From a bacterium (lineage in GTDB: Bacteria > SZUA-182 > DTGQ01 > JAFGSM01): DNA of 18,641 bases. The translations under genes were made by a program, and so were the position numbers. Numbering within the stretch: the first letter of the stretch is position 1; each line of letters opens with the position of its first letter. The notes under the pieces were generated by a model, which ran no database searches, was not told the origin of the DNA, and saw only the letters and a list, made by a program, of their open reading frames with translations. The DNA lies in NCBI GenBank assembly GCA_049472355.1, contig JBLIRP010000072.1:1-18641 (forward strand), written 5' to 3'. Shown piece after piece: positions 2 through 18,641 of this stretch.

Positions 2-574
2 GAGGACCTGACGCAGATGGAACTCCACGTGGCGGTTGACGAGGCGGATGTGGGGCAGGTGAAAAAGGGGCAGGATGCAACCTTCACGGTGGATGCATAT
101 CCGGATAGGGAATTTCCGGCCAGGATCACCCAGGTGCGTTATGCATCCCAGACCGTCGAGGGTGTGGTTACCTATGAAACCGTTCTGAACGTGGATAACT
201 CGGACCTGTTGCTGCGGCCGGGCATGACCGCCACTGCGGACATCGTTGTCAAGAGGGTCAAGGACGCGGTCCTGGTTCCCAATGCAGCCCTGCGTTTTAC
301 CCCGCCGGTGCAGCAAAATAATACATCACCGGGAGGCAGGGGCCTGGTGGGTGTGCTTCTGCCCCGTCCTCCGCGGAGAAATTCTCAGGCAGCGCAGCGT
401 CAGGTCAAGACCGCGAACTCTCATAATCAGCGCGTCTGGGTGTTACAGGAGGGAAGGCCCACGGCCATTCCCGTCTCCACAGGCGCATCGGATGGTCAGA
501 TGACCGAGGTGGTGTCAGGGGAGGTCGAACCGGGACTCCCACTGATCGTGGATGTGATGGGGGCAGGCAAATGA
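2..574 (+). CDS. macA: MacA-type efflux periplasmic adaptor (membrane fusion protein), 5'-truncated by the window
   Basis: The frame is open from base 2 (EDLTQMELHVAVDEADVGQVKKGQDATFTVDAYPDREF...LLRPGMTATADI...VLVPNAALRF), typical of the beta-barrel and C-terminal part of MacA/HlyD adaptors. ATGA overlap with the next gene. Confidence 0.9.
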   Translation, partial: EDLTQMELHVAVDEADVGQVKKGQDATFTVDAYPDREFPARITQVRYASQTVEGVVTYETVLNVDNSDLLLRPGMTATADIVVKRVKDAVLVPNAALRFTPPVQQNNTSPGGRGLVGVLLPRPPRRNSQAAQRQVKTANSHNQRVWVLQEGRPTAIPVSTGASDGQMTEVVSGEVEPGLPLIVDVMGAGK

Positions 575-1308
575 AAACCGGCACCTCGAACCATAGGGAT
601 GATCCGCATGACATGCCCCTCATCGATTTCAGTGCGGTGGCCAAGGTCTACGGCAGGGGCCAGGCAGCCATAAAGGCCCTGAGAGGCATTGACCTTCGGA
701 TTGACAACGGCGATTTCGTTGCGGTGATGGGGCCCAGCGGGTCGGGGAAATCCACCTGCATGAACATTGTGGGGTGTCTGGATATACCCACCTCCGGTTC
801 GTATCGATTCAAGGGGGTGGAGGTTGGCGCGCTCACCCGTGATCAACGCGCCCTTTTGCGCCGCAACTATCTGGGATTCGTGTTTCAGGGATTCGATCTT
901 CTCAACCGCACATCGGCCCTTGAAAATGTGGAGTTGCCATTGATCTATCGTCATGTTCCTGCAGGGGAGCGGCACGCCCGCGCCCATAAGGCGCTCGAGG
1001 CGGTGGGCCTCAAGGGGTGGGAAACGCATACCCCGGGCGAGCTCTCCGGCGGCCAGCAGCAGCGGGTCGCCATTGCACGTGCCATGGTGACGGAGCCCGA
1101 TGTATTGCTGGCGGACGAGCCCACCGGCAATCTGGATACGGTTAGAAGCAGGGAGATCATGGACCTGCTTTCCTCCTTTAACCGCGAGCAGGGCATCACC
1201 ATTCTCATGGTGACCCATGAGCCGGATATGGCCGCCTATGCCAAACGAATCATCCGTTTCCTCGACGGCGCCATCGATGCCGAGGAGCGAAACGGGGGTG
1301 ATGCATAA
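571..1308 (+). CDS. ABC transporter ATP-binding protein, MacB/LolD family
   Basis: Walker [16 protein letters not shown]-loop, signature [14 protein letters not shown], Walker [13 protein letters not shown]-loop VTHE. An alternative start at 613 is possible. Confidence 0.95.
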
Positions 1309-2519
1309 TGGTATGGGATACCATCCTTCTCGCCCTGCGGGAGATCCGGCGCAATGTCATGCGCTCCTCCCTCACCATCCTGGGGATCGTCATCGGTGTT
1401 GCAGCGGTCATCACCATGGTAACCCTCGGGAAGGGGGCCACGCTGAAGGTCACCTCCGATATAACAAAGCTCGGCACGAATATGCTTCAGCTACGGCCCG
1501 GCCAGGGCTTCCGGGGACCGGGCGGCACACGGGCCGCTGCCAGCATGTTTGATGTAAAGGATGCAGAGGTGATTAAACGGGATATCTCGGGACTGGCAGC
1601 CGTAGCCCCAGCAGCCTCCGATCGTGTACAGGCCATTTATGGGAATGTAAACTGGTCAACATCGGTCACCGGGAGTGACAATGCCTTTCTGCAGGTGCGT
1701 AACTGGTCCCTCAAGGAAGGAAGGGAGTTCACGGGCAACGAGCTGCAAGGCGGGAAGACCGTCTGCATCCTGGGTTCCACGGTGCGCGACAATCTTTTCG
1801 CCTCACAGGACCCCCTCGGGTCCACGATCCGTCTGAAAAGGCTCTCCTGCCAGGTCATCGGCGTGCTCGAGTCCAAGGGGCAGTCCGGTTTTGGCTCGGA
1901 CCAGGACGACTTCGTGCTTATACCGCTGCGCACCTTTCAGCGGCGCATTGCAGGGAACGATGATGTGGAGGTCATTTATATCTCCGCCCAGGATGGCGTA
2001 TCTACGGAAAAGGTCCAGCAGGATGTCGAACGGCTGATGCGCGAGCGTCGCCATATTGCGCAGGGGAAGGATGACGATTTCAATGTCAGGGACATGAAGG
2101 AGCTGGTGAGCACCCTGACCGGCACCACAAAGCTGCTCACCGCCCTGCTTGCCGCAGTTGCGGCGGTAAGCCTGCTGGTCGGGGGGATCGGGATCATGAA
2201 CATCATGCTCGTATCCGTGACCGAAAGGACCAGGGAGATCGGGATCAGGCTGGCCATCGGCGCCAGGGAACGGGAGGTGCTGATGCAGTTCCTGGTGGAG
2301 GCCGTGGTGCTCTCATCCCTCGGCGGGCTTGCGGGGATCATCATCGGCCTTTCCGCATCCGCCATCGGGGCGCATTTTCTTCAGGTCCCCTTTGTGTTCA
2401 CCCTGGGGATCGTCCTCCTCGCCTTTCTCTTTTCAGGGGCGGTGGGTGTGCTGTTCGGCTTTTTCCCGGCCCGCCAGGCTGCGCGCCTCAACCCGATCGA
2501 CGCCCTTCGGCACGAGTAA
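1308..2519 (+). CDS. macB: MacB-like ABC transporter permease (MacB periplasmic core + FtsX domain)
   Basis: RSSLTILGIVIGVAAVI TM1, large periplasmic domain, SLLVGGIGIMNIMLVSVTERTREIGIRLAIGA, FGFFPARQAARLNPIDALRHE. TAATG coupling to the ATPase. Confidence 0.95.
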   Translation: MVWDTILLALREIRRNVMRSSLTILGIVIGVAAVITMVTLGKGATLKVTSDITKLGTNMLQLRPGQGFRGPGGTRAAASMFDVKDAEVIKRDISGLAAVAPAASDRVQAIYGNVNWSTSVTGSDNAFLQVRNWSLKEGREFTGNELQGGKTVCILGSTVRDNLFASQDPLGSTIRLKRLSCQVIGVLESKGQSGFGSDQDDFVLIPLRTFQRRIAGNDDVEVIYISAQDGVSTEKVQQDVERLMRERRHIAQGKDDDFNVRDMKELVSTLTGTTKLLTALLAAVAAVSLLVGGIGIMNIMLVSVTERTREIGIRLAIGAREREVLMQFLVEAVVLSSLGGLAGIIIGLSASAIGAHFLQVPFVFTLGIVLLAFLFSGAVGVLFGFFPARQAARLNPIDALRHE

Positions 2520-2629: not shown

Positions 2630-3352
2630 CTAATCAAACGCCATGTGCGTCTTCCAGACCTCCCATACCTTTCCCACGAGATCAGGCCCTGGTTTCAGCG
2701 TCATCTTTCCGGGCTTCCATCCCGATGGTGTCGCCTCCGTGCCCTTGCTGTTTCTCACGTGCTGAAACGCCTGGATCTGCCGTATTGACTCACTGACGTT
2801 TCTTCCCACGGGAGGTGTAAGCACCTCGTATCCCTGCACCACCCCATCCGGGTCGATAATAAACCTTCCCCGTGTCTCCACGCCCGCATCCTCATCGTAT
2901 ATGCCGTAGATGGTTCCCACCTTGCCCCCTGCATCGGAGAGCATGGCAAAAGGCACGCCGCCGGACACCATCTTGGAAAGCTCGTTGTCGTTCCACATCT
3001 TATGCACGAAGATGCTGTCAACGCTCATCGACAATATTTCCACGCCGAGCTTTTGAAATTCGGGGTATTTTTCGGCAACTGCCGAAATCTCGGTAGCTCA
3101 GACAAAGGTGAAATCACCCGGGTAGAAACAGAGTATAACCCATTTCCCCAGGTACTCGGATAGCTTTACCTGGACGAATTTTCCCTTATGATAGGCCGGT
3201 GCGACAAAATCAGGTGCCTTTCTGCCCACTTTGATCATTGCGCGTGCCTCCTTTGCACTGGGTTTTTCTTCCTGCTGTGGTTGTTCCTTCTCCGGCTCGC
3301 CGACAGGACCGCCCGTCGGCCTGGCGCAGCCGACCTTCATTTCTTCAGGCAT
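2630..3352 (-). CDS. prxU: Selenocysteine-containing peroxiredoxin (AhpC/Prx1 family, PrxU type), 240 aa with UGA=Sec at 3098-3100
   Basis: ORFs 3098..3352 and 2630..3043 are in the same frame. Reading through gives [38 protein letters not shown], matching AhpC FYPxDFTFVCPTE with TGA at the peroxidatic Cys. [10 protein letters not shown] and VGRNVSE motifs follow. Shine-Dalgarno AAAGGAGG upstream; SECIS-like hairpin downstream of the TGA. Confidence 0.93.
3070..3087 (-). promoter_or_regulatory. Bacterial SECIS-like hairpin of prxU
   Basis: Minus strand reads TGA GCTACCGAGA TTTCGGC AGTT GCCGAAA: 10-nt spacer, perfect 7-bp stem, loop containing GT. Confidence 0.8.
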
Positions 3353-3624: not shown

Positions 3625-4824
3625 TCACGATTCTCGCACGCATTGAAGGCGACGATGGAGCCTTTCATTCCTGTAGAGCGCCTCCCAGAAGGGAAGGACC
3701 TCGCCGTCATCGGAGAGGTGATCGATACAGAATAGCCTGCATTCCGCAAGGTCGATGTTGCCCGGCTTAGGCCAGAAAAATATCTCCACCCTGAGCATGA
3801 GCCTGGTCTCCCGTGGGCCGGGTGGCTCGATGCGGAGCTTCAGCGCATTCTTCATGCCGGCACGATGCAGGATGTGCAGCCAATAGCGAGTCCCGTGCCC
3901 TCTTGACGTGCCGTATCGCTTGCCCAATGCCTCCAGTACATCAATGACAAAATAGTTCCCCGTTTTAAAGATGCGGTTGCACGAGTCATTGGTTTCGCAC
4001 ATCTCCTGTATGGAGAGGCCGGTTGCCTTGGATACCAGTTTTATCATTTCAGAAAGATAGATATACGAGCCCTCATGATAGATGCCGATTTCAGAGACAT
4101 TGCGCAGCCGGATCTGGCGGATGAAATCCAGGTTCCGCATCCCGAATCTGTAAATATCCCCGAATTCTCCCTCATTGACGCCCTTTGCAAGGGTCATGGA
4201 AAGGATAGTCCATACCTTGAGATCCTTGAGGTTTCGAAGCGCCCTGCATTTCGCCTCCCTGAGGTCCTCACCGCAGAAGTGGCAATGGGTTTCCTTGCGG
4301 AACCCGTTCAGGGAAAGGATGACATAGTGCAGCCCTGCCTCCTTGAGGATTTCGAGATAGGCCCTGTCGGCGAGTTTTATCCCGTTCGTAAGGAGCACGC
4401 TGAACCTTTGCCGGTGATTCTTCCGCACATAGGCGATCAATTCGGGGAGGTCGTCCCGCACCGTGGGCTCACCTCCGGAGAAGACGATATATCGCTGCCT
4501 GCTCCTGTCGATGATTGCCTTGATCTCATTCCGGGATAATTCATTCTCCAGACCTTTGTCGGGCAAGTAGCACCACCTGCAGCGAAGATTGCAGCGGTGG
4601 GTGATGGGTATGACCAATCCGTAGGGGCTGTGCCTTCTCCTCCTTGCCGCAACACAGGAAAGGTAGAGCCGGGCATCAGGGTCAAGGGTATTGGTAAACC
4701 TGCCATGACTCCTGCAATCCTTTGCCATGACGACCTTTCCCCCCTCCACCACCACCTGTGCATCTATCTCCTCAAGGCAGAGCGGGCACAGACTCCTGGT
4801 GGGCTTTATGACCATACTGTCCAT
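3625..4824 (-). CDS. Radical SAM protein, divergent MJ0619/Tes (tetraether synthase, GDGT-MAS)-like
   Basis: N-terminal TRSLC13PLC16-x20-C37RSH40GRF rubredoxin-like motif typical of this family; CNLRCRWC radical SAM motif; FSGGEPT; LLTNG; C-terminal NIDLAECRLFCIDHLSDDGEVLPFW resembling the family CCIH..DG..IPFC tail. Confidence 0.75.
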   Translation of the reverse strand: MDSMVIKPTRSLCPLCLEEIDAQVVVEGGKVVMAKDCRSHGRFTNTLDPDARLYLSCVAARRRRHSPYGLVIPITHRCNLRCRWCYLPDKGLENELSRNEIKAIIDRSRQRYIVFSGGEPTVRDDLPELIAYVRKNHRQRFSVLLTNGIKLADRAYLEILKEAGLHYVILSLNGFRKETHCHFCGEDLREAKCRALRNLKDLKVWTILSMTLAKGVNEGEFGDIYRFGMRNLDFIRQIRLRNVSEIGIYHEGSYIYLSEMIKLVSKATGLSIQEMCETNDSCNRIFKTGNYFVIDVLEALGKRYGTSRGHGTRYWLHILHRAGMKNALKLRIEPPGPRETRLMLRVEIFFWPKPGNIDLAECRLFCIDHLSDDGEVLPFWEALYRNERLHRRLQCVRES

Positions 4825-4832
4825 TTATCCCT

Positions 4833-5264
4833 TTACCCCTTTTCCATCCCCGCTGCTTCAATCTTCCGGATAACGGCTATGATAACGGAGAGCACCAATC
4901 CCAATAATGTCCCTACGACAATGCCAAATAGTGCGCCAATGCCCAGGATGCCAAGCAATGTCCCGACACCCTCATGAAGGCCTTTCGTATGTAAAATTAT
5001 ATTCGGGATGTGAACGGTAGGCCCGGAGATCAATCCCGCCAATGTACCGTACAGGGTGCCCATGATCACCCTTATCAGGAATGATTCGCTCTTGATCTCC
5101 AGGGTATATTGGGCATAGTAATAACCCACGAGCATACCGCTCCCGATCCCTGTGATGATACCCGGAGTACCCCCAACTTGTCCCATGAACCCGCCCGCAA
5201 ATGCCGAGATAATCGTTACCGCTATCTCTATCGCTATCTTTACATACTTAAATCCGTCTTCCAT
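4833..5264 (-). CDS. Small Gly-rich integral membrane protein, unknown function
   Basis: 143 aa with about 4 hydrophobic segments carrying GxxxG repeats; SD AGGAGG upstream; tight operon spacing on both sides. Confidence 0.8.
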   Translation of the reverse strand: MEDGFKYVKIAIEIAVTIISAFAGGFMGQVGGTPGIITGIGSGMLVGYYYAQYTLEIKSESFLIRVIMGTLYGTLAGLISGPTVHIPNIILHTKGLHEGVGTLLGILGIGALFGIVVGTLLGLVLSVIIAVIRKIEAAGMEKG

Positions 5265-5282
5265 GCATCCTCCTGTTCCTCA

Positions 5283-6494
5283 TTATCCATCTCCGAAGCC
5301 GAGCTTTGTATAGAGCAGAGGCACCGGCCCCTTTTCCATGGAGTCGAGGAGTTGATCGATTACCTGCATATCCCTGACCGGGAGCCGGTCAATGCCCATC
5401 TCTCTCATGCGCCCTGCAACTGAGGAGATGATACAGCCTGAAAAGGGGCGGGGCAAATATCGGTTCATGCGAGCATATATGGTATTGAAGGATTCATTGC
5501 ACAGGTTGCCGAATGAGAACGGCGAGAAATCGCAGGGGCAGACCTCGCCCTGGGCGTTGACATAGACGTGAACCCTGCCTGCACTGCACCCATAATTCCC
5601 CTGTGCCGTGATGTGTGCAAAGGACATGATGGCAGGCAGGGATATATCCCTGTTTATCGCATACTGGATCTGCCTCATGCGATCCCGGTCTTCCTCCCCG
5701 AACATCTCCTCATCGCCGTACAGGAGCCTCCCGCAGGGCTTTGGCTCCAGTAGCCGGATCTCATGGATACCCAGCCCTGCAGCAAAGCGGACAAATTCAT
5801 CCATTTTCTCCGAATGGAGCATCTGTTTTGTCATGACGGTGGATACGGCGGTGTAGATACCTGCTGCCAGGGCATGCTCGATGGCGGCTATGGCATCATC
5901 GAAGGCGGATTCGCTTCGCCTCATCCGGTTGTGCTCCTGGCTGTCGAGGCTTATCACCATAATGGTGAGCCCCGCCTGTTCCAATGTGCGTGCCCGGGAC
6001 CGGTCAAGGCCATGGCCGCTGGTAAAAAGGATGGTATACGAGCGGTCATCCACCATGCGCAGCAGCGGCTCCAGGTCATCCCTCAGGAGCGGCTCCCCGC
6101 CCGTGAAGCCGATGCACGAGACGCCGGCATCCTGGATCTGCCGGATGATGCGGCATATCTCCTCTGCAGGCAATCCATCTGTCTGCTCCTTGCGTGCATT
6201 GCTGCAATACAAGCACCTGAGAGGGCACCGGTCCGTGACCGATATGTAGCAGGAAAAGGGGCTCATGATCCCCTTCGAAAGGTTGCGGAAGGATTCCAGG
6301 GCCGTTTTGTAACTGCGGGAGGGGAATGGGGTGTACATGGAATTGATGAAGACCCGGTTGTTGTGAAGGGTGAATTTTTCGTGCCGCATCTGCCGGATCA
6401 TGAAGCATATGAATCCCGGCGGGAGTTGCAGGAGCTTTCTGTTAACGCCCCTTGCCATGGAAAGATACTTCCTGATCCCGGTCATATGTCTCAT
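5283..6494 (-). CDS. Radical SAM protein with C-terminal SPASM/Twitch-like domain
   Basis: CPLRCLYC motif, FTGGEPLLR, GCSAGR...GEVCPCDF. The start is placed at ATG 6494 (GAAAGG 9 nt upstream) because the ORF-track start at 6539 lies inside the tandem repeat. Confidence 0.85.
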   Translation of the reverse strand: MRHMTGIRKYLSMARGVNRKLLQLPPGFICFMIRQMRHEKFTLHNNRVFINSMYTPFPSRSYKTALESFRNLSKGIMSPFSCYISVTDRCPLRCLYCSNARKEQTDGLPAEEICRIIRQIQDAGVSCIGFTGGEPLLRDDLEPLLRMVDDRSYTILFTSGHGLDRSRARTLEQAGLTIMVISLDSQEHNRMRRSESAFDDAIAAIEHALAAGIYTAVSTVMTKQMLHSEKMDEFVRFAAGLGIHEIRLLEPKPCGRLLYGDEEMFGEEDRDRMRQIQYAINRDISLPAIMSFAHITAQGNYGCSAGRVHVYVNAQGEVCPCDFSPFSFGNLCNESFNTIYARMNRYLPRPFSGCIISSVAGRMREMGIDRLPVRDMQVIDQLLDSMEKGPVPLLYTKLGFGDG

Positions 6495-6502
6495 ATGCAA
6501 AG

Positions 6503-6749
6503 GCCTTTCATCTGAAAATCCCCTCCGGGGCATTTTCATGCTTCCTTGTGAGCCGAAGTCTCATCTGCGTTTCACTTCTGCATTCTACATTCGACATTCG
6601 TAGTTTCATCAGGCTCATGTGCGTTTCATCTGAAAATCCCTATTGGGCATTTTCATGCTTCTTTGTGAGCCGAAGTCTCATCTGCGTTTCACTTCCACAT
6701 TCTACATTCGATATTCGCAGTTTCATCAGGCTCATGAGCCTTTCATCTG
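6503..6749. repeat. Tandem duplication of a ~117-118 bp structured element, bounded by a 12-bp direct repeat
   Basis: Unit 1 at 6506-6623 and unit 2 at 6624-6740 are nearly identical. GCCTTTCATCTG occurs at 6503-6514 and 6738-6749, with a 1-mismatch copy at 6621-6632. Confidence 0.9.
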
Positions 6750-7591
6750 CCCACCATGAGATCGATGAGCGAAGCAAGGGTTATCGCCCGTATGAAAAAG
6801 AGCACCCCGTGCGAAAACAGCCTGTCTGAAAAAAAGAGGCTCACGACGAAAACCGGCAGCGTGATCACAAAACCGATGAGGTACACCATGCCGCACATAC
6901 CCAGGCAGAAGGGTGCACATGCAATGGGGATGGAGACGAGTGCGAGGATGGTCGCAAGCCTCCTCGTCTCTATGATCCCGATGAGGGAGGGGAGCGTATT
7001 GCCGCCCCCTGACCTGTCTCCGTGTATGTCCAGTATATCCTGTGAAAGCTCATACGACATGACCATAAGGAAGAGCCAGATGGGGAAGATGAAGAGGGAG
7101 TCGCGCCTCGGGGAGGGAGTGCCTCCTGATGTCAGGGCAAAGGAGAGGGGATAGATGGACACGACGAGCAGGGACACGAGTATGTCCTTAATATAGGCGA
7201 GCCTTTTTGAGTATAGGTTATAAAAGTACACTGCCAGGGTATCGAGCATGATCAATCCAAAAAACCATGCATTCACAATAGCCGCTATTAAGAGGCCCAT
7301 GAGGAAAAGCATACGGTACATCCACTGGGCGCCCCTTTTCGAGATAGCGGAGTTTATGAGGACGCGCCGGGGGTTGTTGATGATATCGTACCCCAGGTCG
7401 CAGCAGTCATTCATCATGTATCCCGCACAGATCAACAGGAAAAGGGATGCGATGCCGAGCGCGATAGTGAGGCTGACCGCACTATCCCTCAGCACGTCAA
7501 AAGAGCCATAGGCATAGAGAGAGATGGTGAAGACTCCAAGCAGGATGGAGAAGGCCTTCCCAAGCCTGAATACCTTGAGTATACGGAACAT
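6743..7591 (-). CDS. UbiA-superfamily prenyltransferase, DGGGP synthase (geranylgeranylglyceryl-phosphate geranylgeranyltransferase)-like
   Basis: AGYMMNDCCDLGYDIINNPRRVL (NDxxDxxxD) and YELSQDILDIHGDRSGGGNTLP (second Asp-rich motif, DGGGPS-like); about 8 TM helices. Confidence 0.85.
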   Translation of the reverse strand: MFRILKVFRLGKAFSILLGVFTISLYAYGSFDVLRDSAVSLTIALGIASLFLLICAGYMMNDCCDLGYDIINNPRRVLINSAISKRGAQWMYRMLFLMGLLIAAIVNAWFFGLIMLDTLAVYFYNLYSKRLAYIKDILVSLLVVSIYPLSFALTSGGTPSPRRDSLFIFPIWLFLMVMSYELSQDILDIHGDRSGGGNTLPSLIGIIETRRLATILALVSIPIACAPFCLGMCGMVYLIGFVITLPVFVVSLFFSDRLFSHGVLFFIRAITLASLIDLMVGR

Positions 7592-7609
7592 TATGCTGGT
7601 GCTGCCGGT

Positions 7610-8398
7610 TTACCTGCTCACCATGCACCGGTCCCTGATGGCCTTGTAGCTATTTATGATCTCCATTTTTTCGCCCTTGGACCGGGCAGCCTTCAGGTCC
7701 CGCATGACGAGTTTATACATGGCGATGGCATCCTTGGCCGTCAATGCCATCTGCCGATCGGGGATACCTTCGAGGCCCTGAAAAACGAGCCACTGATTGC
7801 TCGCACGGACGACCGAGAGTGCGTTGTTCACCACCCTTCCCCTGAAGGTGTAATTGTTTTCGTTGAGGAGCCTGACGTGCATGAGCCCATCGAGGTCCAT
7901 GTATTTTCGTATCCATCTACTCTGCACCTCGGGTATCCGGTAGGATGCCTCCCATGCAGGTTTGAAAAGGGCATTCACGATGAGGAATTCCTCCCGCGTA
8001 TCGACGGTGCCATCCTCGAAGAAGTACTTGGCATTCATGATGCCTTCGTCGGAAAGAGGGATGACCAGGGTCGGTTCCTTGCTTGTATCAAGGCCCCTCT
8101 CAACCACGAGTTCATCCCCCTTGAAGAAAATGGTGAATCCCAGATCCTGATGCTCCTCTGCAATGATATAAGCCACATCGAACATGTCTCTCGCATAGTC
8201 GACCGCAGCCTCAATGGCCGCAGCCTCCCCGAGGGTTTTTTCAAGTACAAGCTCCTCCGATGAGAGGTTATCCACCCTCCCCCGCGCATACATGCGACTG
8301 AAATCCACCCTCTTTTCCTTCGCCCATGGTTTACATCCGGATACGACCAGGAATATGCAGACCAGAAAACATAATGCCTTCACGCCATATCCCCTCAT
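7610..8398 (-). CDS. Lipoprotein of unknown function, possibly with SCP2-like lipid-binding folds
   Basis: Signal peptide MRGYGVKALCFLVCIFLVVSG-C (lipobox, Cys22); SD GGGAGG; two segments resembling SCP2 beta-strand/G..P motifs. Confidence 0.7.
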   Translation of the reverse strand: MRGYGVKALCFLVCIFLVVSGCKPWAKEKRVDFSRMYARGRVDNLSSEELVLEKTLGEAAAIEAAVDYARDMFDVAYIIAEEHQDLGFTIFFKGDELVVERGLDTSKEPTLVIPLSDEGIMNAKYFFEDGTVDTREEFLIVNALFKPAWEASYRIPEVQSRWIRKYMDLDGLMHVRLLNENNYTFRGRVVNNALSVVRASNQWLVFQGLEGIPDRQMALTAKDAIAMYKLVMRDLKAARSKGEKMEIINSYKAIRDRCMVSR

Positions 8399-8439
8399 GG
8401 CAACCTCCCGTGTTTGTGGTTCAATGCATGCCCTTATCC

Positions 8440-9594
8440 TTAGAAGAATGTTGGCAACCGATCAAACAACATGGATGATAACACAGGTTCAGACCAGGGC
8501 CCGAGGCATCGGCAGTCCCTTTCCGCATAGCTTCCGAAAAGGACCCTGTTCCCCGCCCTGCACCCCCCTCCGCAGAGATCCTTATATGAACAGGAGCGGC
8601 ATGCTTGGGGAAGGGTCATGAATTCGCAAAATTCGGCAGATCGATACCGCCGGGCGAAGATATCCCAGATAGTATCATCGAATACTTTCCCGAGACAAAT
8701 ATCGTCGATAAAGGGACAGGGAGTGACGCTGCCGTCGATCTTTACGGAGATCACATAATAGCCGCCCAGACATATCCTGCCGCAGAAGGTCAGGATCCTC
8801 GCAATATATCTGAAATGCTCAGGGCTCCAACAGGAAAGAATCGCATGCTTCACCTCGTGCCAGAGTTCCCGGCTGATCATGAGAGGATCATGGGCCGATT
8901 GGGGCACATACTGGTAGAAGAGCGGGGTTATGCCGAGCCCCTTTTGTACAAGATGCCTGATTTCACTGATATGCCCGACGTTCTCGCTGTGTATGGCAGT
9001 GAAGGTATACGTCTTAATGCCTGCATTCACAAGGTTTCTGATCCCGGTCATGGTCTCCTGCCAGGACCCAGGCTTCCCGGAAAACCGGTCGTGTTTTTCG
9101 GGGTCGTGAGAGATGAGGGTGACGATGGCCCTGTCGAGCCCTGCACGGTAAAGCCTTCGAGCGAGGCCCTCCGTTGCCAGGGTTGCGTTTGTGTAGAGCA
9201 CCGTCTTCCCAATGCCTGTGCGAGACCTTGCAAACCGGATTATCTCAGGGATGTCCCCGCGCAGGAGCGGCTCTCCGCCCAGAAGATCCAGTCGCACAGG
9301 CACATCTCCTATCTGTTCCAGAATGGAGAGGATGCGGGGCAATGGCAGTTCCCTGCCCCGGTTTGGCGCATAGCACATCCTGCAACGGAGGTTGCATGCA
9401 TCCGTGAGGTCAAGTTTGACGACATAGGGATAGCCTCCCACAAGGTGCCTTGAGAATGAACGGATACCGGTCTGGAGCAGGGAACCGGGGGCCGCCCTCC
9501 CCAGTGTGGCAAGGAGGAGATCCTGGCAGGGTATCATGGCCCTGGTCTTATATCTGGCTGCCAGGCCGGCCAATGTCAGCGCACGGCAGCTCAT
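8440..9594 (-). CDS. Radical SAM protein with full SPASM domain
   Basis: CNLRCRMC, LLGGEPLLR, LYTNAT; SPASM cysteines ICLGG..VTPCPF...CRSCSYKDLCGGGCRA...DCRC. ATGA overlap with the methyltransferase. Confidence 0.92.
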   Translation of the reverse strand: MSCRALTLAGLAARYKTRAMIPCQDLLLATLGRAAPGSLLQTGIRSFSRHLVGGYPYVVKLDLTDACNLRCRMCYAPNRGRELPLPRILSILEQIGDVPVRLDLLGGEPLLRGDIPEIIRFARSRTGIGKTVLYTNATLATEGLARRLYRAGLDRAIVTLISHDPEKHDRFSGKPGSWQETMTGIRNLVNAGIKTYTFTAIHSENVGHISEIRHLVQKGLGITPLFYQYVPQSAHDPLMISRELWHEVKHAILSCWSPEHFRYIARILTFCGRICLGGYYVISVKIDGSVTPCPFIDDICLGKVFDDTIWDIFARRYRSAEFCEFMTLPQACRSCSYKDLCGGGCRAGNRVLFGSYAERDCRCLGPWSEPVLSSMLFDRLPTFF

Positions 9595-10448
9595 GGCTTG
9601 ATGCCTATAAAGTATATAAAGCGAAAGGTAAGACGGACGCCGTTCATGCGGTCAACCGCCTCCCGGATTTTGTCATAGATGTATTCGCTGCGCTCCTCGC
9701 GCAATGCACCCCGGAAACCGGCGCAGGGCCCGGCGGTTTTCATCCACTCAACAAGGGATTCCCCTGTTTCAAAGTGGTGCACACAGGTCTTTTCGGAGAG
9801 CGTCCTGACCGAAAGCCCTGCACGCCCCACCATGCGCCTGAAGGCATCAATGCCTGGAGGAAAAAGGAGGGGAGGGAATGATCGCAACGAAAAAGGGTTC
9901 CTGAGCAATATCCTCGTCACGAGCCTCTGAAGCTCGGGCAGGGAGCCCCGTGTATTGACGAGCACGGCGATCCTGCCTCCCCTCGCGAGCACCCTCTGTG
10001 CCTCTTTCAAGATCCTTTCTGGGTCGCCGTATTCGAGGGACCAGCACGCTGCTATAACATCGATGGACTCATCCCCATGCCCCTGCAGGGCGCAGAGCAT
10101 GTCCTTATGCACAAACCGCGTTCCAGATGAAATGCCAAGCCTTTGTCCGGCAAGGGCCAGCATGGCACCCGAGATGTCGTACCCGATAACCGAGCCATTG
10201 GGCCGCACATACCCATCCAGTATTGCTGTGGCATGGCCTGTCCCGCATCCGAGGTCTATGCAGCGCATTCCAGCCCCTACATCCAACTCCTTCAGGATAT
10301 CCCCGGTGAATGCAGCAAGCAGCCTCCTGGTAACAGCGGCATCATAGGTCTGAGCGCATCGGTCATAATCATCCCCGTAGATGCCCGCATCGACCTTCCG
10401 GCCCAGCAACCTGTTAAGCAGTATCAGGGATCTCTGTGCAAGGCCCAT
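9591..10448 (-). CDS. Class I SAM-dependent methyltransferase (UbiE/BioC-like)
   Basis: Motif I CIDLGCGTG, motif II GYDISGAML, SIDVI, EAQRVLARGGRI; SD GGGAG upstream. Confidence 0.9.
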   Translation of the reverse strand: MGLAQRSLILLNRLLGRKVDAGIYGDDYDRCAQTYDAAVTRRLLAAFTGDILKELDVGAGMRCIDLGCGTGHATAILDGYVRPNGSVIGYDISGAMLALAGQRLGISSGTRFVHKDMLCALQGHGDESIDVIAACWSLEYGDPERILKEAQRVLARGGRIAVLVNTRGSLPELQRLVTRILLRNPFSLRSFPPLLFPPGIDAFRRMVGRAGLSVRTLSEKTCVHHFETGESLVEWMKTAGPCAGFRGALREERSEYIYDKIREAVDRMNGVRLTFRFIYFIGIKP

Positions 10449-11333: not shown

Positions 11334-11452
11334 AATAAGAGACTTCAGAGGCCATTAGGAATGAGGCTATCAATAGGAGGTGATGGGATGATTTTTGGTT
11401 CAACTTTTCCTTATGAGGTCTTATCGGATCCCATTGCGAAGGAGTGAGAAAC

Positions 11453-14400
11453 ATGGAAAACGATAGAAAACGTCAATCAGAAATGCATCGATTAAGAAGC
11501 CAATGGATATGGGGGCTTCTTTTTATATTTATTGTAAGCCTCATGATCAGCCTCATCCCTCTATCCCATGTGGCTTATGGATATAACGCCGGTCCATGGG
11601 AAGTCGCCATCCTCGAATATCTCTCCCCTCATGATCAGGGGGATATCACCCATCAGGTGGTTGATGGTGAAATGGCCTATATTGCCTATAAAGATGGTTT
11701 TGATGCCATTCACGACACATATTATATTGCAGCCGTCGATATTACCGATCAATTGGAGCCTGCAGTAATCTGGACTCAGAATATCCCCGATGATGTAGAG
11801 GATCTTGTTCTGGATGGCTCGAATCTTTTTATAATAACGAGCACAAAGGGTGTATGGGCTATAGATCTCTATGCCTCCGACGGCTCCAGGCTTACTGAGG
11901 CCGACATCTCCCAGATAACGAAGAAACAGCGGTATCGAAGCGTATACGACGTAGCTCCATACACAACGCAATTCCCCACCTATTATCAGACCAGCGGGAC
12001 GTTCGGTTTCGGCAGCCTGTTTGCCGGCTCCCTTCCGGGTCTGTATAGTACCGGATTCGGTTTCCCGTGGGGTTATCAGACGCCTGGCTCCTATTATCAA
12101 TGGAGTCAGCCTTCGTATCTGACACAGCCATGGAATATGGTGAGCCAATCCTATTCCACATACAATTTTGGGCAGTATTACCCCCCATCCGGCCTTTCAA
12201 CCCAGTACCTGACCACCGGATGGCCGTATTCCTCAATGAACTTTGGCTGGACCGGCCCCTCTGTCTGGTCTCCGTATAGTGTGATTCCCATAGGCGGGAT
12301 CACGTGGCCCACGATAACAGGCTCCTCTTCAAAGAAGACTTCCTCTTCAACGGTCACCAGATATCGCTCACCTGTGCCTGTCAAGCTGCCCATCGACAAT
12401 ACCTCAGGCACAGAGGAAACCGGCCAGATCACCCTGAGCCTTTACAATCTTGCAGGAGATAAGGTCAGCGACCAGACGGAGACCCTGACTATCCAGCCGG
12501 GAGAAAAGGAGTATCCCCTCGTCCTGAATAAGGTCCCTGAAGGCGCCAAGACGGAGGATCTTGCCCGGTACAACCTTCGCTACAAATTCGCCGCAGAGAA
12601 CGGCTCCCTCACCGGCCAGATGAGTCTCTTTCAGGTGGCTGACAAGATGGAGGTCCGCATCCTCGGATCGGATTCCATGTATGCCGGAAGGCCTACGTCA
12701 ATAGGGGTTCATGCCATTGTGCACGGCCAGCCTGAGTCCGTCCAAGGGGCCGGTGTTGACATAGAACTGGTCATGGGCAACAAAACGCAGCATCTGTATC
12801 AGGGTACGACGGATGCGGACGGATTTGTGGAGGCCCTTGTCACAATCCCAGAAAACGCCGGTCAGGCGAAGATCCGGGCAAAGGTAGCCTCCGATCTTGG
12901 TACGGAGACCGTCACCGAGGATGTCCAGATCGTCCGCCTGTTCAAGATCCTGCTGACAACGGATAAACCCATATACCAGCCGGGTCAGACCATCCACATT
13001 CGGACCCTGAGCTTCAAGAAGCCGGATCTCGTGCCTGAGGGGAACAAGGAGATCATTATTGAGTGCGAGGATCCGAAGGGGAACAAGGTCTTCAGGGTTG
13101 CGCCCGAAACGGATGAATTCGGGGTTGCATCCGCAGACTTCACCCTTGGCTCGGATATCAACATGGGCCTTTACACCGTCAGGGCCATCCTTACTGCGGA
13201 CGGCGCTTCCACCCAGTCTGAAAAGAAGGTGCAGGTGGAGCGGTATGTTCTTCCCAAATTCAGTGTGGACCTGAATACGGATGCGGACTATTACCGGCCT
13301 GCAGACACGGTGCACGGCGTAGTCCATGCCGCATACTTTTTCGGCAAGGACCTGGAGGACGCCTTGGTCACCATCGAGGCATCCAAGTTCGATGTGGAAT
13401 TCGTTCCCTTCCAGACCATTACCGGCCATACGGATTCGGAGGGCTTTTTCTCCTTTGACCTGACCCTTCCCAGCTATTTTGTCGGTCTCCCCCTGGAGCA
13501 GGGGAATGCATTCGTCAAGCTGGACATCAAGGTTGAGGATACCGCAGAGCATGAAGAGTCCGTTGTCCGAGAACTGACCGTGACTAAGGCCCCCATCCTG
13601 GTCAAACTCATACCTGAAAGCGGAACGATCGTCATGGGCGTTGAGAACAAATTATTCCTGCTTACCACCAATCCCAAAGGTCAGGGTCTTGCCACCACAA
13701 ACCTCGTAAATTTCAATAACCAGATCCTCACGGTAACGACCGATGAGCAGGGGGTCGGGACATTCACTATAACCCCTGACGAACAATCGAGCCTTCTCTT
13801 CCAGATCGCCTCCCAGGCAAACGGCCAGAGCGCCCTGGTCGAGATAGACCTTTCCAGTGAGGTCGGCCCGGTAAAGGTCCTGCTGCGCACGGACAAGGCC
13901 ATTTACACCGTGGGGGATGTCATGACCATCGATGTCTACACGCCCGAGGAGGTCATGGCACGGCGGATCTTTATGGATCTCATCAAGGAGCGCCAGACCC
14001 TCCTCACCAAAGGGGTGGACGTCAGCAACGGGCATGGACAGGTTGTGATAGATCTAAGCAACCACATGGCAGGCACCCTTCTGGTTGAGGCATACTATAT
14101 CGCGGAGGCAAAAGAGGCGGCATCGGACGTGTTTCGTGATAAGAAGATCGTGTATGTCAATCCTGCAACGGATATCCAGGTGACTGCCACCCTGGACAAG
14201 GAACAGTACCTTCCCGGCGAAAAGGCCAGGATTTCATTCCAGGTCACTCCCGCCCAAACCGCCGCCCTCGGAATCACCATTGTGGATGAGGCTGTATTTG
14301 CCCTCCAGGAGAACAGGCCCGGTCTCCTCAAGGTCTATTTCAGCATGGAGGAGGAGATCATGAAGCCCCGCTTCTGGCCCCTGATTGTCCCCTTTGAGGA

Positions 14401-17188
14401 GGCGGTCACCTCGGAGGAGCCTGCGGAGGAGGAACAGGAAGCGGCGGAGATCGCCTTTGTCACTGCAGAAGAGCCTGAGGACCCCAACCTGGATGCAAGC
14501 AGCTACCCCGACCTGGTGCAGCGGATGAAGGAGTCGGTCGCAAAGGACATCGACAAGGATGCTGATAAAATTGCCAAGGACCTGGGGAATTTATACGTAT
14601 ACAGTGAATGGGCATACACCAATGCCCTCGGTCAGGGGAGGATCAAGACCTATAAGGATCCATGGGGCAATTCCTATACGCTCACTGTAGGTTATAATCA
14701 AGTCTCCCTGACATCCAAAGGCCCGGATGGGAAGTCCGGGACCATTGATGATATCTACTATACAAAGCCTTACCAGCAGGTATACATGCCGGCACCGACG
14801 CCCATTCGTCAGCCTTCCGGTATCGGGTGGGGCGGCGGGGGGGTAATAGGGGTCCCCATCTTTATGATGCCCTCTTCATATTTTGGTCTGGGAGGTGGAG
14901 CCACCTCTTCCAGCGGAGTGTATAGCTATGCCTCGTATGGCAATATACAAAGACAAACAATGTCATCCTCCGGAACCACCTCAACCCAGACAAACGCCGG
15001 CTTTCTGGACCAGGCGAGCCAGCAGGGCCAGGAAACCCCCGGTGAAGAGCCGGAGGCCCAGGAGCCGCGCAAGATCAGGCGTGACTTCCCCGAAACCCTC
15101 CTCTGGGAGCCGCTGCTGATTACCGAATCGGACGGCACGGCCTTGCTTGATGCCAACATGGCGGATTCCATCACCACGTGGCGCATAAGCACCGTGGCAT
15201 CCACGACGGATGGCAGGCTGGGAGGAAGCACCGACGGGATCGTGGTGTTCCAGGATTTCTTCATTGATATCGACCTTCCCGCAGTGCTCACCCAGAATGA
15301 CGAGATCTCGCTTCCCATCGCCATCTACAACTACCTTGATGCATCGCAGGATGTGAGGATCGTCCTGAAGAAGGAGGTTGATGACACCTGGTTCGAGCTG
15401 ACCGGTTCAAATGAGAAGCAGGTGACCCTTGGAACTGGAGAGGTCAGCGTGGTCTATTTCCCCATCAAGGTGGTTGATGTGGGATGGCACGAGCTGACCG
15501 TATTTGGCTACGGCCCGGTTATGAGCGACGCGATCGCGAGAAGGATCGAGGTACTCCCGGACGGCATGGAATTTAACGTGAATGTGAGCGACCGGATGCA
15601 GGGGGATGAGACCAGTCATGTGATCCATATACCCTCTGACGCCATCGACGGGGCGAGCAGTATCCTGGTCAAGGTCTATCCCGGCATCTTCAGCCAGGTA
15701 GTGGAGGGACTTGACAAGCTCTTCAAAGTCCCCTATGGGTGATTCTGCCAAACCACGTCGGTGACGTGGCCGAATGTGCTTGTGCTTGACTACATGATCA
15801 CCACGAATCAGATCACCCCCGAGATCGAGATGAAGGCTCGTCAGTATGTGAACCTGGGGTATCAGCGTCTCCTCACCTTCGAGTCCCCCGGCGGGGGCTT
15901 TGACTGGTCCGGCAGTCCTCCCGGCAAACCCATCCTGACCGCTTACGGTCTCATGGAATTTACCGATATGGCAAAGGTGCACTATGTTGACCCTAAAATG
16001 ACCGAAAGGACCAGGGACTGGCTGGTAGACAAGCAGCAATCGGATGGCTCCTGGCCCACAGGCTATGACCTGTTCGGCACCCTGGGCACCCCCATGCAGA
16101 CTACCGCATTTTCCATTTGGTCGCTTGTGTACTCGGGATACCCCGTAAACAGCAATATCCTGAAGGCCATGAATTACATCAAGGCACGGGTGAATGAAAC
16201 CAGCGACAACTATACCCTGGCCCTCTGCGCCAACGCCCTGCTTGAGGCCAATCCGCAAGACGCTGCCGCACAATCCATCCTGGAACGTCTTGAGGCGGCA
16301 AAGGTCGTGCAAGGAGACACCGTCCACTGGATCTCCGGCGGGCAGAGCGTCACCTATTCACGCGGAAGCTATCTGAACCTCGAGACCACCGCCCTGGTCA
16401 CCCTGGCCTTTATGAAAGCAGGGTGGCGATATCCTCAGAGCATCGATGGGGCACTCAACTATATCATCAAACAGAAGGATGCATACGGACTCTGGGGACA
16501 GGTAGAGGCAACGGTGCACTGCCTGCGGGTGCTCATGATGGCCATGGGAGGCCAGACCGAGGAGATGGATGGGGAGATCCTCATCAGCATAAATGGTCAG
16601 ACCCTGGATAAGGACGACCTGCCCATCTTAAAGATCACCCCTGTGGACACCCCGGTGGTCAGGCTCATCGAGCTTGCCCCTTATACCCTGGAGGGTGACA
16701 ACACAGTGGGCATCCAGCTTGCCGGCGAGGGGAACATCCTCTACCAGATCGTGGGCACCTACTACCGGCCCTGGCAGGAGGTTGTTCTTCCCTCGCAGCC
16801 GCCGCTTTCCATCGATCTTTCCTATGACCGCACGACCCTCACGGTGGACGACACGATCCTGTGCACGGTAACAGTCACCAACAACGTGCCGGGCAGCGTT
16901 ACCAGGCTTGGGATGATCGACCTGGGCATCCCGCCGGGGTTCCGGGTCTTCTGGGAGGATTTTGAAACGGCAATGCAGGAAGACAAGATCTTCAAGTACG
17001 AATCCACCAACCGGCAGCTCAGCCTGTACCTGAACCCGATCCCCTACGGAACACCCGTTACCATTACCTATCGCCTGCAGGCCAAGTACCCGCTTAAGGT
17101 CTCCACGCCCAGATCCAGGGTCTATGAGTATTACAACCCGGATGTGAAGGATGAGTCAAAACCGGTGACCATCAGGGTGCTCAATTAA
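11453..17188 (+). CDS. Alpha-2-macroglobulin-family (thioester-protein family) protein, ~1911 aa, with in-frame UGA (probable Sec) at 15740-15742
   Basis: ORFs 11444..15742 and 15761..17188 are in one frame separated by a single TGA. MG motifs LTTDKPIYQPGQ, YVLPKFSV, LRTDKAIY, LDKEQYLPGE, IVDEAVFAL; A2M domain RRDFPETLLW, ADSITTW, FQDFFIDIDLP; thioester region VPYG*FCQTTSVTWPNV; GYQRLLTFE; receptor-binding domain MIDLGIPPGF and SRVYEYYNP. N-terminal hydrophobic signal/anchor. ATG 11453 has SD AAGGAG. Confidence 0.9.
15753..15769 (+). promoter_or_regulatory. Candidate bacterial SECIS hairpin in the A2M gene
   Basis: TGA TTCTGCCAAA CCACGTC GGT GACGTGG: 10-nt spacer, perfect 7-bp stem, G-starting GGT loop. 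A lower ATTC/GAAT pairing (15742-15745 with 15772-15775) is also possible. Confidence 0.75.
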
Positions 17189-17823: not shown

Positions 17824-18641
17824 ATGAACAGGGTGTTCAGGCACATCGGATGGGGTGTCGTATTCACAGGAATGTTGTGCCTTGGGGCCTGCCTCGATCC
17901 GACTGCAAACAGCTTCGATAAGACCGGGAGCAGTCATAAGACCGTGGTCATCAACGAAATCGTAGCCAGGGCGTCCGATGGCGACGATGACTGGATCGAG
18001 CTCTACAACGCAGGTGAACATGCCGCGTACCTGAGGGATTATGCGTTGGTCGACGACAACGTTGAGCGCGAGCCTGTTCTGCTGCCCGATATCATCCTGG
18101 AGCCCGGCGAGTTTATCATGATCCTGGCAACGGAGGAGGAACCTGAAGACGGCTCCCCGTACGTCCCCTTTCGATTGGGCAGCGATGACATGCTCATCCT
18201 CTACTGGGGCCTTTCCATTCTGGATGTGCTGAACTGGGAGGCGGGTGAGGCGCCTGCCGGGTACAGCTATGGCCGGTTTCCCGACGGTGTCGGTGCGGCG
18301 ACAACCCTGATACCCACACCGAACGTATCAAACAGGGAGATCTTTCTATCCGCCCTGGTGGTCAACGAGATCGTTGCCAGGCCTCTCGATGAAGGCAGTG
18401 ACTGGATCGAACTTTACAATGCCGCTGACTCTCCGGTATATATGGGGGATTACTCCATTGTCGATGATAACGTGTTGCACGATCCGGTGGTGCTGCCTGA
18501 TATGGTCCTGGAGCCGGGCGAGTTTTTCGTGATACTTGCGAGCGACGTGCCCCCCGGAGACGGCTCCTTTTATGTGCCCTTCAGATTGGGTGTGGATGAC
18601 TGCGTGACCCTCTATCAGGATGGGGACATCATGAATGTACT
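17824..18641 (+). CDS. Lipoprotein with tandem lamin-tail (LTD) domains, 3'-truncated by the window (not in the ORF track)
   Basis: My translation: MNRVFRHIGWGVVFTGMLCLGA-C (lipobox), then VVINEIVARASDGDDDWIELYN...LEPGEF...SYGRFPDG...PTP and a second VVNEIVARPLDEGSDWIELYN...LEPGEF. These are the LTD signature INE/DWIELYN motifs. No stop before the window end. Confidence 0.85.
   Translation, partial: MNRVFRHIGWGVVFTGMLCLGACLDPTANSFDKTGSSHKTVVINEIVARASDGDDDWIELYNAGEHAAYLRDYALVDDNVEREPVLLPDIILEPGEFIMILATEEEPEDGSPYVPFRLGSDDMLILYWGLSILDVLNWEAGEAPAGYSYGRFPDGVGAATTLIPTPNVSNREIFLSALVVNEIVARPLDEGSDWIELYNAADSPVYMGDYSIVDDNVLHDPVVLPDMVLEPGEFFVILASDVPPGDGSFYVPFRLGVDDCVTLYQDGDIMNV

Follow-up and report, generated by a model that had tools for sequence, protein, structure and literature searches.

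We report that an alpha-2-macroglobulin (A2M) gene in an 18,641-nucleotide stretch of bacterial DNA (contig JBLIRP010000072.1 of assembly GCA_049472355.1, all of it analysed here and hereafter called the window) carries a single in-frame TGA at positions 15740-15742, in the column where the family encodes the cysteine of its thioester. We conclude that this TGA is very probably a selenocysteine (Sec) codon and not a stop, and that the gene would encode one exported A2M of 1911 residues in which Sec takes the place of the thioester Cys. Comparison of homologues, made at the level of their sequences, shows that Sec-utilizing bacteria have preserved this UGA as a sense position, accompanied by a dedicated hairpin. 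Our favoured reading overall, which we regard as probable, is that Sec occupies the A2M thioester column and would there form a selenoester. An earlier note, drawn up from the letters of the window, had proposed insertion of Sec at residue 1430; this proposal is now supported by the pairing of Sec and Cys forms at the column, a conserved hairpin, purifying selection and the presence of selB and selD. The features on which the argument turns are listed below (i is the thioester column; SECIS, selenocysteine insertion sequence).

11438..11444, + strand: Shine-Dalgarno-like sequence GAAGGAG, 8 nt 5' of the ATG at 11453 (from reading the sequence)
11453..17188, + strand: gene of the A2M/thioester-containing protein (TEP) family, 1911 codons including one in-frame UGA (open reading frame (ORF) listing, translation and Pfam)
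15686..16534, + strand: thioester domain (TED; PF07678, 120.3 bits), with the TGA near its N-terminal end
15740..15742, + strand: in-frame TGA at the thioester-Cys column, read here as a probable Sec codon (U1430; column alignment)
15746..15748, + strand: TGC codon of Cys1432 at i+2, where the family has Glu (Cys in 5/5 genes with the motif U-F-C-Q)
15749..15751, + strand: CAA codon of Gln1433, the acyl partner in the thioester motif, invariant (alignment)
15753..15769, + strand: candidate upper SECIS stem-loop, a perfect 7-bp stem (15753-15759 / 15763-15769) with the triloop GGU at 15760-15762
15742..15775, + strand: tentative lower stem around the hairpin, AUUC 15742-15745 / GAAU 15772-15775 (alignment pairing)

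As the earlier note had stated, the TGA is the sole internal stop of its frame (11444/11453..17188, + strand), and the alignment places it at the thioester Cys column. The surrounding peptide reads VPYG-U-F-C-Q-TTSVTWPN, and Cys homologues read G-C-F-E-Q; relative to the canonical C-x-E-Q motif, the Cys has become UGA and the Glu has become Cys, while the Gln at i+3 is kept, as had been claimed, and proved invariant. Because the ATG at 11453 has a Shine-Dalgarno-like sequence and the database gene call P0003 (1429 aa, spanning this ATG up to the TGA) begins there, we number the protein as 1911 residues with U1430, C1432 and Q1433. The ORF listing also gives an alternative start, GTG 11444, which overlaps the Shine-Dalgarno-like sequence and would yield 1914 aa and U1433. 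The ORF downstream of the TGA opens at GTG 15761, within the hairpin, with no GGAG, GAGG or AGGA in the preceding 20 nt, so that the earlier description of a start lacking a Shine-Dalgarno sequence stands.

The TGA letter itself, which the earlier note had wanted checked in raw reads, holds up in other data: contigs from three independent DNA runs, each of a different study (one of marine sediment, one of mangrove and one of an unspecified metagenome), list no alternative letter at this codon. A sequencing error at the TGA was rejected on the strength of these contigs and of conservation across genomes. Contig depth in three sediment/mangrove metagenome runs is 75-130 at the site versus 6-8 in its flanks (10-20 times), and the stretch holding the TGA and the hairpin (15736-15783) is carried in these runs by many contigs of 31-43 nt, a pattern that seems to fit a k-mer common to many related A2M genes in those communities. 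General recoding of TGA (genetic code 4/25) was likewise rejected, since 4 of the 12 window genes that were checked terminate normally at TGA and each A2M gene has exactly one internal TGA. Separately, a 304-nt contig from an RNA library, derived from a relative about 94% identical (15688-15990, 19 other letters), spans the TGA; it is not proof of transcription and was left unused.

To look for pairs of TGA and Cys codons among homologues, as the earlier note had suggested, we searched 41 genomes in six frames, namely the window's own genome and 40 relatives. An A2M gene with one TGA was found in genomes G004, G006 (two copies) and G009, at 65-72% identity, which brings the TGA form to 5 loci in 4 of the 20 species genomes available for the phylum. 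All five of these genes, which we call UFCQ genes, have the TGA in the same column within the motif G-U-F-C-Q-T-T-S-V-T-W-P-N, encode 1759-2038 aa and contain exactly one internal stop each, this TGA. The same search returned Cys forms with the motifs G-C-F-T-Q (contig C91 of the window's own genome), G-C-F-G-Q (G011) and G-C-F-E-Q (G006 and G026). The Cys-form paralogue in the window's own genome (C91:466-2622, locus L044) is 68% identical to the window protein over the C-terminal 715 residues, lacks the hairpin and is truncated by the start of its contig.

Further scans of genome contigs (26 loci) and metagenome contigs (45 loci) yielded 71 loci, 66 of which cover the site; the scan of genome contigs, made with a single protein, returned only relatives at no more than 46% identity and missed the close ones. 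These 66 further loci, from other phyla and from metagenomes, comprise 8 with TGA and 58 with TGT or TGC. The TGA forms among them read U-F-E-Q in four Anaerolineae metagenome-assembled genomes (MAGs) and one unclassified MAG (L049, L050, L052, L053 and L059), and U-F/M-E-Q in two Gemmatales-type records and one metagenome contig (L054, L055 and L083). In total, 13 of 75 loci have TGA at the thioester column and 62 have a Cys codon (TGT/TGC), and each of the 13 TGA forms continues for at least 480 open codons past the TGA. The Sec forms fall into three clades: the window's small uncultured phylum, Anaerolineae and Gemmatales. We also compared the best 120 relatives in a collection of 5.8 billion proteins. 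Twelve of these 120 gene calls, the window's own included, end exactly at the Gly that precedes the thioester column; the others comprise 98 with CFEQ, 2 with CFTQ, 1 with CFGQ and 7 outside the motif pattern. Because 12 of 120 entries end at this very column, we conclude that the family is systematically mis-annotated, with genes split by the gene callers.

The portion of the frame past the TGA evolves as coding sequence. Among the five UFCQ genes, synonymous differences are saturated (pS 0.66-0.86), nonsynonymous differences past the TGA are few (pN 0.18-0.25), and omega (dN/dS) past the TGA is 0.08-0.15, no weaker a constraint than before it; the earlier statement that the C-terminal third shows no decay is therefore borne out as purifying selection. 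A tree of 71 rows (L028, L058, L068 and L106 were dropped as too short) places the window's gene in a clade of 8 rows with support of 100, made up of 5 Sec and 3 Cys forms. At least five changes between Sec and Cys are required over this tree, three of which are forced by its starred branches, and an 18-row tree gives the same pattern. An approximately unbiased (AU) test rejects a monophyletic grouping of the five UFCQ genes (delta lnL 101, p 2.3e-5), a group that had been named after the first tree was viewed. Because the trees and the AU test split the UFCQ genes, Sec and Cys must have been exchanged at least twice within the window's clade.

Each exchange inside the clade is paired with a change at i+2, where Cys accompanies Sec, Gly or Thr accompanies Cys, and the outgroup has Glu. 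The earlier note had seen this Glu-to-Cys change at i+2 without weighing it; it proves to be specific to one clade and strictly tied to Sec, and it opens the alternative of a selenenylsulfide discussed below. Five of the 13 Sec forms have Cys at i+2; not one of the 62 Cys forms does, nor any of the 101 database proteins bearing the motif. Both TGC and TGT encode this Cys among the UFCQ genes, suggesting selection for the amino acid and not for the RNA sequence. Just 4 of 711 aligned columns separate the Sec forms from the Cys forms of the clade; i+2 is one of them, and Ser at i+6, a hairpin codon, is another. Cys1432 thus appears to occur in Sec forms only and to be lost whenever Sec reverts to Cys.

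The hairpin described in the earlier note, a perfect 7-bp stem with a GGT loop, is present at 15753-15769; it begins at the 11th nt past the TGA, its loop lies 17 nt past the UGA, and folded alone it has -9.2 kcal/mol. The bacterial SECIS (bSECIS) model, as given in PMC13188914, describes an apical loop of 3-9 nt on an upper stem of 4-16 bp, a G in loop positions 1-2, a distance of 16-37 nt from the UGA and a minimum free energy (MFE) of -7.5 kcal/mol or lower. With its 3-nt loop, which starts G-G-U, its stem of 7 bp, its spacing of 17 nt and its folding energy, the hairpin lies within all four of these constraints. Hairpins of this kind are uncommon: the + strand of the 18.6-kb window holds 8 perfect 7-bp hairpins with loops of 3-10 nt, and 0.59% of its positions have a perfect 7-bp hairpin with G first in the loop 16-37 nt downstream.

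Conservation of the hairpin among homologues, which the earlier note had proposed as a check, is seen both in constraint at synonymous sites and in two compensatory pairs. The longest nucleotide run that is invariant across the five UFCQ genes measures 23 nt, starts 9 nt past the T of the TGA and lies over the hairpin; no other such run in the roughly 5.7 kb exceeds 8 nt. Where the residue is invariant and its codon degenerate (633 codons), all five genes agree on the codon in only 63 cases, yet they do so at each of the six degenerate codons that follow one another across the hairpin. When the five UFCQ sequences are aligned with five of the Anaerolineae type, 97.3% of the stem cells are paired, compared with 24-51% when the 3' partners are slid, and two pairs differ in a compensatory manner between the UFCQ and Anaerolineae clades (C-G to G-C and C-G to U-A). 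The lower 4-bp stem is paired in 95% of cells, with one-sided variation in 2 pairs and 2 cells unpaired; its outermost-but-one pair appears across homologues as C-G, U-G and U-A. At least 6 of the 7 upper-stem pairs are kept in all 10 Sec forms of the UFCQ and Anaerolineae clades, whereas in 56 of 61 Cys forms the number is 4 at most. The Gemmatales-type Sec A2Ms (L054:3388, L055:3388 and L083:723) have a different and longer candidate SECIS, with a stem of 10+4 bp and a 14-nt loop without G at its first two positions, and the stem changes between L054 and L083 are all one-sided wobble changes.

The genome also holds machinery for Sec. In its assembly (148 contigs, 87.5% complete) we found selB (295.4 bits, cut-off 242; C83:83199-84974, - strand), truncated at the end of contig C83 (84977), and a selD of the Sec type (382.2 bits) with one in-frame TGA in F-S-G-U-A-A-K and, 20 nt past its UGA, a hairpin with an 11-bp stem and a GGA triloop. 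The window itself contains a second selenoprotein gene, that of the peroxiredoxin PrxU (3238..2630, - strand), which matches the NCBIfam equivalog NF040737 at 405.9 bits. Its TGA (3100-3098) lies at the peroxidatic Cys (FTFV-U-ATE), a hairpin with the loop AGUU begins 17 nt past the UGA, and the ORF listing gives only a truncated piece of 137 aa.

The read-through protein has the complete architecture of the family. Six domains were matched above their Pfam cut-offs, namely MG2, MG3, the bait-region domain, A2M, TED_complement and the receptor-binding domain (PF01835, PF17791, PF07703, PF00207, PF07678 and PF07677), behind an N-terminal hydrophobic signal or anchor; no NCBIfam model matched the protein at E <= 1e-5. 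The TED_complement match covers residues 1415-1697 of the read-through protein (P0001) and crosses the TGA, with A2M_recep next. A structural model of the TED built on a 67-row alignment (pLDDT, predicted local distance difference test, 90.0; pTM, predicted TM-score, 0.89) is all-helical and forms one domain across the TGA, with G-U-F-C-Q where the first long helix starts, at its N-terminus; an earlier model, from a 6-row alignment of 715 residues, was discarded at a pLDDT of 51.7. The protein also has two long low-complexity segments rich in Tyr, Ser, Gly, Pro and Thr (window about 11950-12400 and about 14740-15040; P0001 about 170-330 and 1100-1200), the second of which sits at the expected bait region, directly before R-K-I-R-R-D-F-P-E-T-L-L-W.

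Several results weigh against our conclusion. Single-sequence MFE folds of 61-66 nt do not choose the 7-bp hairpin and score no better than shuffled sequences do (z +0.34 and -0.26), and we rely on comparative evidence because these folds are unremarkable. An Rfam scan of 15500-16000 at E <= 10 gave two chance-level matches and no SECIS family. The compensatory pairs are single events between clades and also alter amino acids (Thr to Ser and Trp to Tyr), and the covariation rests on these two events because the hairpin is invariant inside the UFCQ clade. Five of the 61 Cys forms (L057 and L079-L082, with C-F-E-Q-T-T-x-x-x-W-P-N) keep 6-7 of the 7 stem pairs; the pairing potential therefore comes partly from the encoded T-T-x-x-x-W peptide, and these Cys forms may point to a latent hairpin that was recruited as the SECIS. 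Since the Glu of CxEQ is absent, the motif departs from the canonical thioester motif, and both the selenoester and the role of Cys1432 are steps that we infer. Finally, of the four genes that the earlier note wished to see confirmed, selB and selD were found, whereas neither selA nor selC, the gene for tRNA-Sec, was: selA had no match in the 87.5%-complete assembly, and for tRNA-Sec the best match in it scored 43.8 bits (cut-off 47), with none reported by ARAGORN among 32 tRNAs. In five relatives, selA adjoins selB in 5/5 and a tRNA-Sec above the cut-off is present in 4/5. As selB is truncated at the contig end and selA lies beside selB in relatives, the missing selA, and perhaps selC, plausibly lies beyond that end, and the non-detection plausibly reflects an assembly gap rather than a true lack.

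If the TGA were a true stop, the locus would be a pseudogene or a split gene making a 1429-residue protein without a TED, perhaps with a separate C-terminal piece. Gene callers do annotate it so (P0003, P0004, P0006, P0009 and others) and the MFE fold is unremarkable, but 13 loci in three clades share a stop at this column and each stays open for at least 480 codons past it, omega past the TGA is 0.08-0.15, the break would fall inside the TED fold, and the only downstream start is the GTG within the hairpin, without a Shine-Dalgarno sequence; we consider this explanation the least probable of all, and extremely so. Scarcely more probable is an explanation without selenium, in which a near-cognate tRNA (Trp or Cys) decodes the UGA, or termination there is partial, and the hairpin stimulates read-through. 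The failure to find selA and tRNA-Sec in the assembly would fit this explanation, but selB and a Sec-type selD are present and the window has the TGA-bearing PrxU gene, the hairpin agrees with the bSECIS model and is similar to the one in this genome's selD gene, and the TGA falls on the one catalytic Cys column in the classical pattern of Sec and Cys.

The main rival to the selenoester accepts Sec but gives it another chemistry: in the UFCQ clade, Sec1430 and Cys1432 would form a redox-active selenenylsulfide and no ester, making the TED a redox or thiol-capture domain or holding it in a Se-S resting state. To our knowledge, all characterized selenoproteins use Sec in redox or selenium-transfer chemistry, and C-x-U and C-x-x-U pairs are redox motifs. 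The strict tie between Cys at i+2 and Sec (5/5 in the UFCQ clade, 0/62 in Cys forms), its replacement by Gly or Thr in Cys forms nested in that clade, its place among only four of 711 columns that split the two forms and the absence of the family's Glu all speak for this rival. On the other hand, neither Gln at i+3 nor the remaining motif context varies, the full A2M architecture with bait region and receptor-binding domain is under purifying selection, and the two other Sec clades read U-F/M-E-Q at 8 loci without a second Cys, from which it follows that Sec at the thioester column needs no partner Cys. We hold the selenenylsulfide to be unlikely, though far less so than the two explanations without Sec.

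Under the reading that we prefer, Sec at the thioester column with a selenoester, SelB carrying Sec-tRNA(Sec) would bind the stem-loop at 15753-15769 and insert Sec1430, and the 1911-residue A2M would be exported via its N-terminal hydrophobic segment. In the folded TED, the selenolate of Sec1430 could then attack the side-chain amide of Gln1433 to give an internal selenoester, and cleavage of the bait would let this selenoester acylate a lysine of the attacking protease, as a thioester does but with greater reactivity. That the Sec1430-Gln1433 selenoester forms and then acts as such a more reactive donor is a step towards which we lean only slightly. Cys1432 would be a companion of the selenium, for instance by Se-S capture of the selenol(ate) before the ester forms or after acyl transfer. 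A fuller version, in which a genuine Sec1430-Gln1433 selenoester works with Cys1432 as its partner (through a Se-to-S acyl shift or selenolate capture), would make this the first non-redox, acyl-transfer use of Sec, a faster-firing and self-quenching warhead in bacteria of anaerobic sediments; we put this forward tentatively, as somewhat short of an even chance.

We know of no job of the thioester position in A2M, C3/C4 and TEPs other than carrying the acyl group as an internal thioester, and of no protein selenoester described in nature. Going by synthetic ligation chemistry, such a bond would pass its acyl group to amines far more readily than a thioester does. Full-text literature searches found no selenoprotein in the A2M/thioester family. 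By word look-up, the main text of a 2026 review (PMC13188914) contains no mention of the macroglobulin/thioester family, nor of a non-redox or selenoester use of Sec, and the same look-up did not find the family in supplementary files of deep-Sep (PMC12013277) or in a supplementary file of BSepDB (PMC13326102), whose text may be incomplete. The macroglobulin thioester site, which very probably contains Sec, would accordingly be a use of selenium absent from the catalogues searched. If the ester forms, it would be a protein selenoester at a thioester site. Nature would in addition offer a Sec/Cys series for the study of thioester reactivity (U-F-C-Q, U-F-E-Q, C-F-E-Q, C-F-G-Q and C-F-T-Q), sometimes within one genome, and the bacterial selenoproteome would gain an exported and very large selenoprotein family.

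The remainder of the window holds genes of other kinds. At 17-2519 (+ strand), upstream of the PrxU gene, lies a tripartite exporter of the MacAB type, comprising the end of a membrane-fusion protein gene and genes for an ABC ATPase and a MacB/FtsX permease. The run at 3625-10448 (- strand) contains three radical-SAM genes, two with SPASM domains and one with an HMPTM-type zinc ribbon, together with a UbiA prenyltransferase, a class-I methyltransferase and two ORFs without a Pfam match, and looks like a cluster for cofactor or lipid/quinone modification. The gene 3' of A2M (17824-18639, + strand, running off the window end) has Lamin Tail Domain repeats (PF00932, 72 bits).

The solved structures closest in sequence are of the eukaryote type: CD109 (8s3o, E 1.6e-54), A2ML1 (7q1y) and A2M (6tav), and also C3 and TEP1; no bacterial A2M is among the 35 solved chains matched at E <= 1e-10. 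The TED model resembles the TEDs of CD109, A2M, A2ML1, TEP1, C4d and C3d with TMq 0.76-0.83. The window protein shares its domain set and the Gln at i+3 with CD109, A2ML1, human alpha-2-macroglobulin, insect TEP1 and C3/C4; it differs from them in having UGA (Sec) for Cys and Cys for Glu at i+2, in being bacterial, in its N-terminal hydrophobic anchor and in its low-complexity inserts rich in Tyr, Ser and Gly. Type I bacterial A2Ms (ECAM/YfhM and Salmonella A2M) are protease traps with MG domains and a CxEQ-type thioester, characterized by a bacterial MG3 domain, a lipoprotein signal and a pbpC neighbour. In the window protein, by contrast, bacterial MG3 scores 19.6 bits (cut-off 34.9) and the N-terminus has no lipobox Cys, and no transpeptidase/transglycosylase (pbpC-like) gene is present among the 13 window ORFs scanned.

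Closer relatives are the bacterial Cys-form A2Ms (the C91 paralogue, L035, L039, L074, L076 and metagenomic G-C-F-E-Q forms), which are 43-68% identical over the C-terminal 715 residues, have the same architecture and are interleaved with Sec forms in the tree, but have TGT or TGC at the thioester column and, at i+2, Glu, or Gly or Thr inside the UFCQ clade, and never Cys. The Anaerolineae Sec A2Ms have the same TGA column and hairpin architecture, but with a GGC triloop and the canonical Glu kept. The Gemmatales-type Sec A2Ms likewise share the TGA column and keep the canonical Glu, but form a separate clade with another hairpin. With PrxU, SelD and formate dehydrogenase, the window gene has in common a UGA at the catalytic Cys column, a hairpin directly 3' of it, homologues with Cys and an occurrence in Sec-utilizing genomes. 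Unlike those proteins, in which Sec serves redox chemistry or selenium transfer, this A2M would place Sec at the acyl-carrying position of an exported structural trap.

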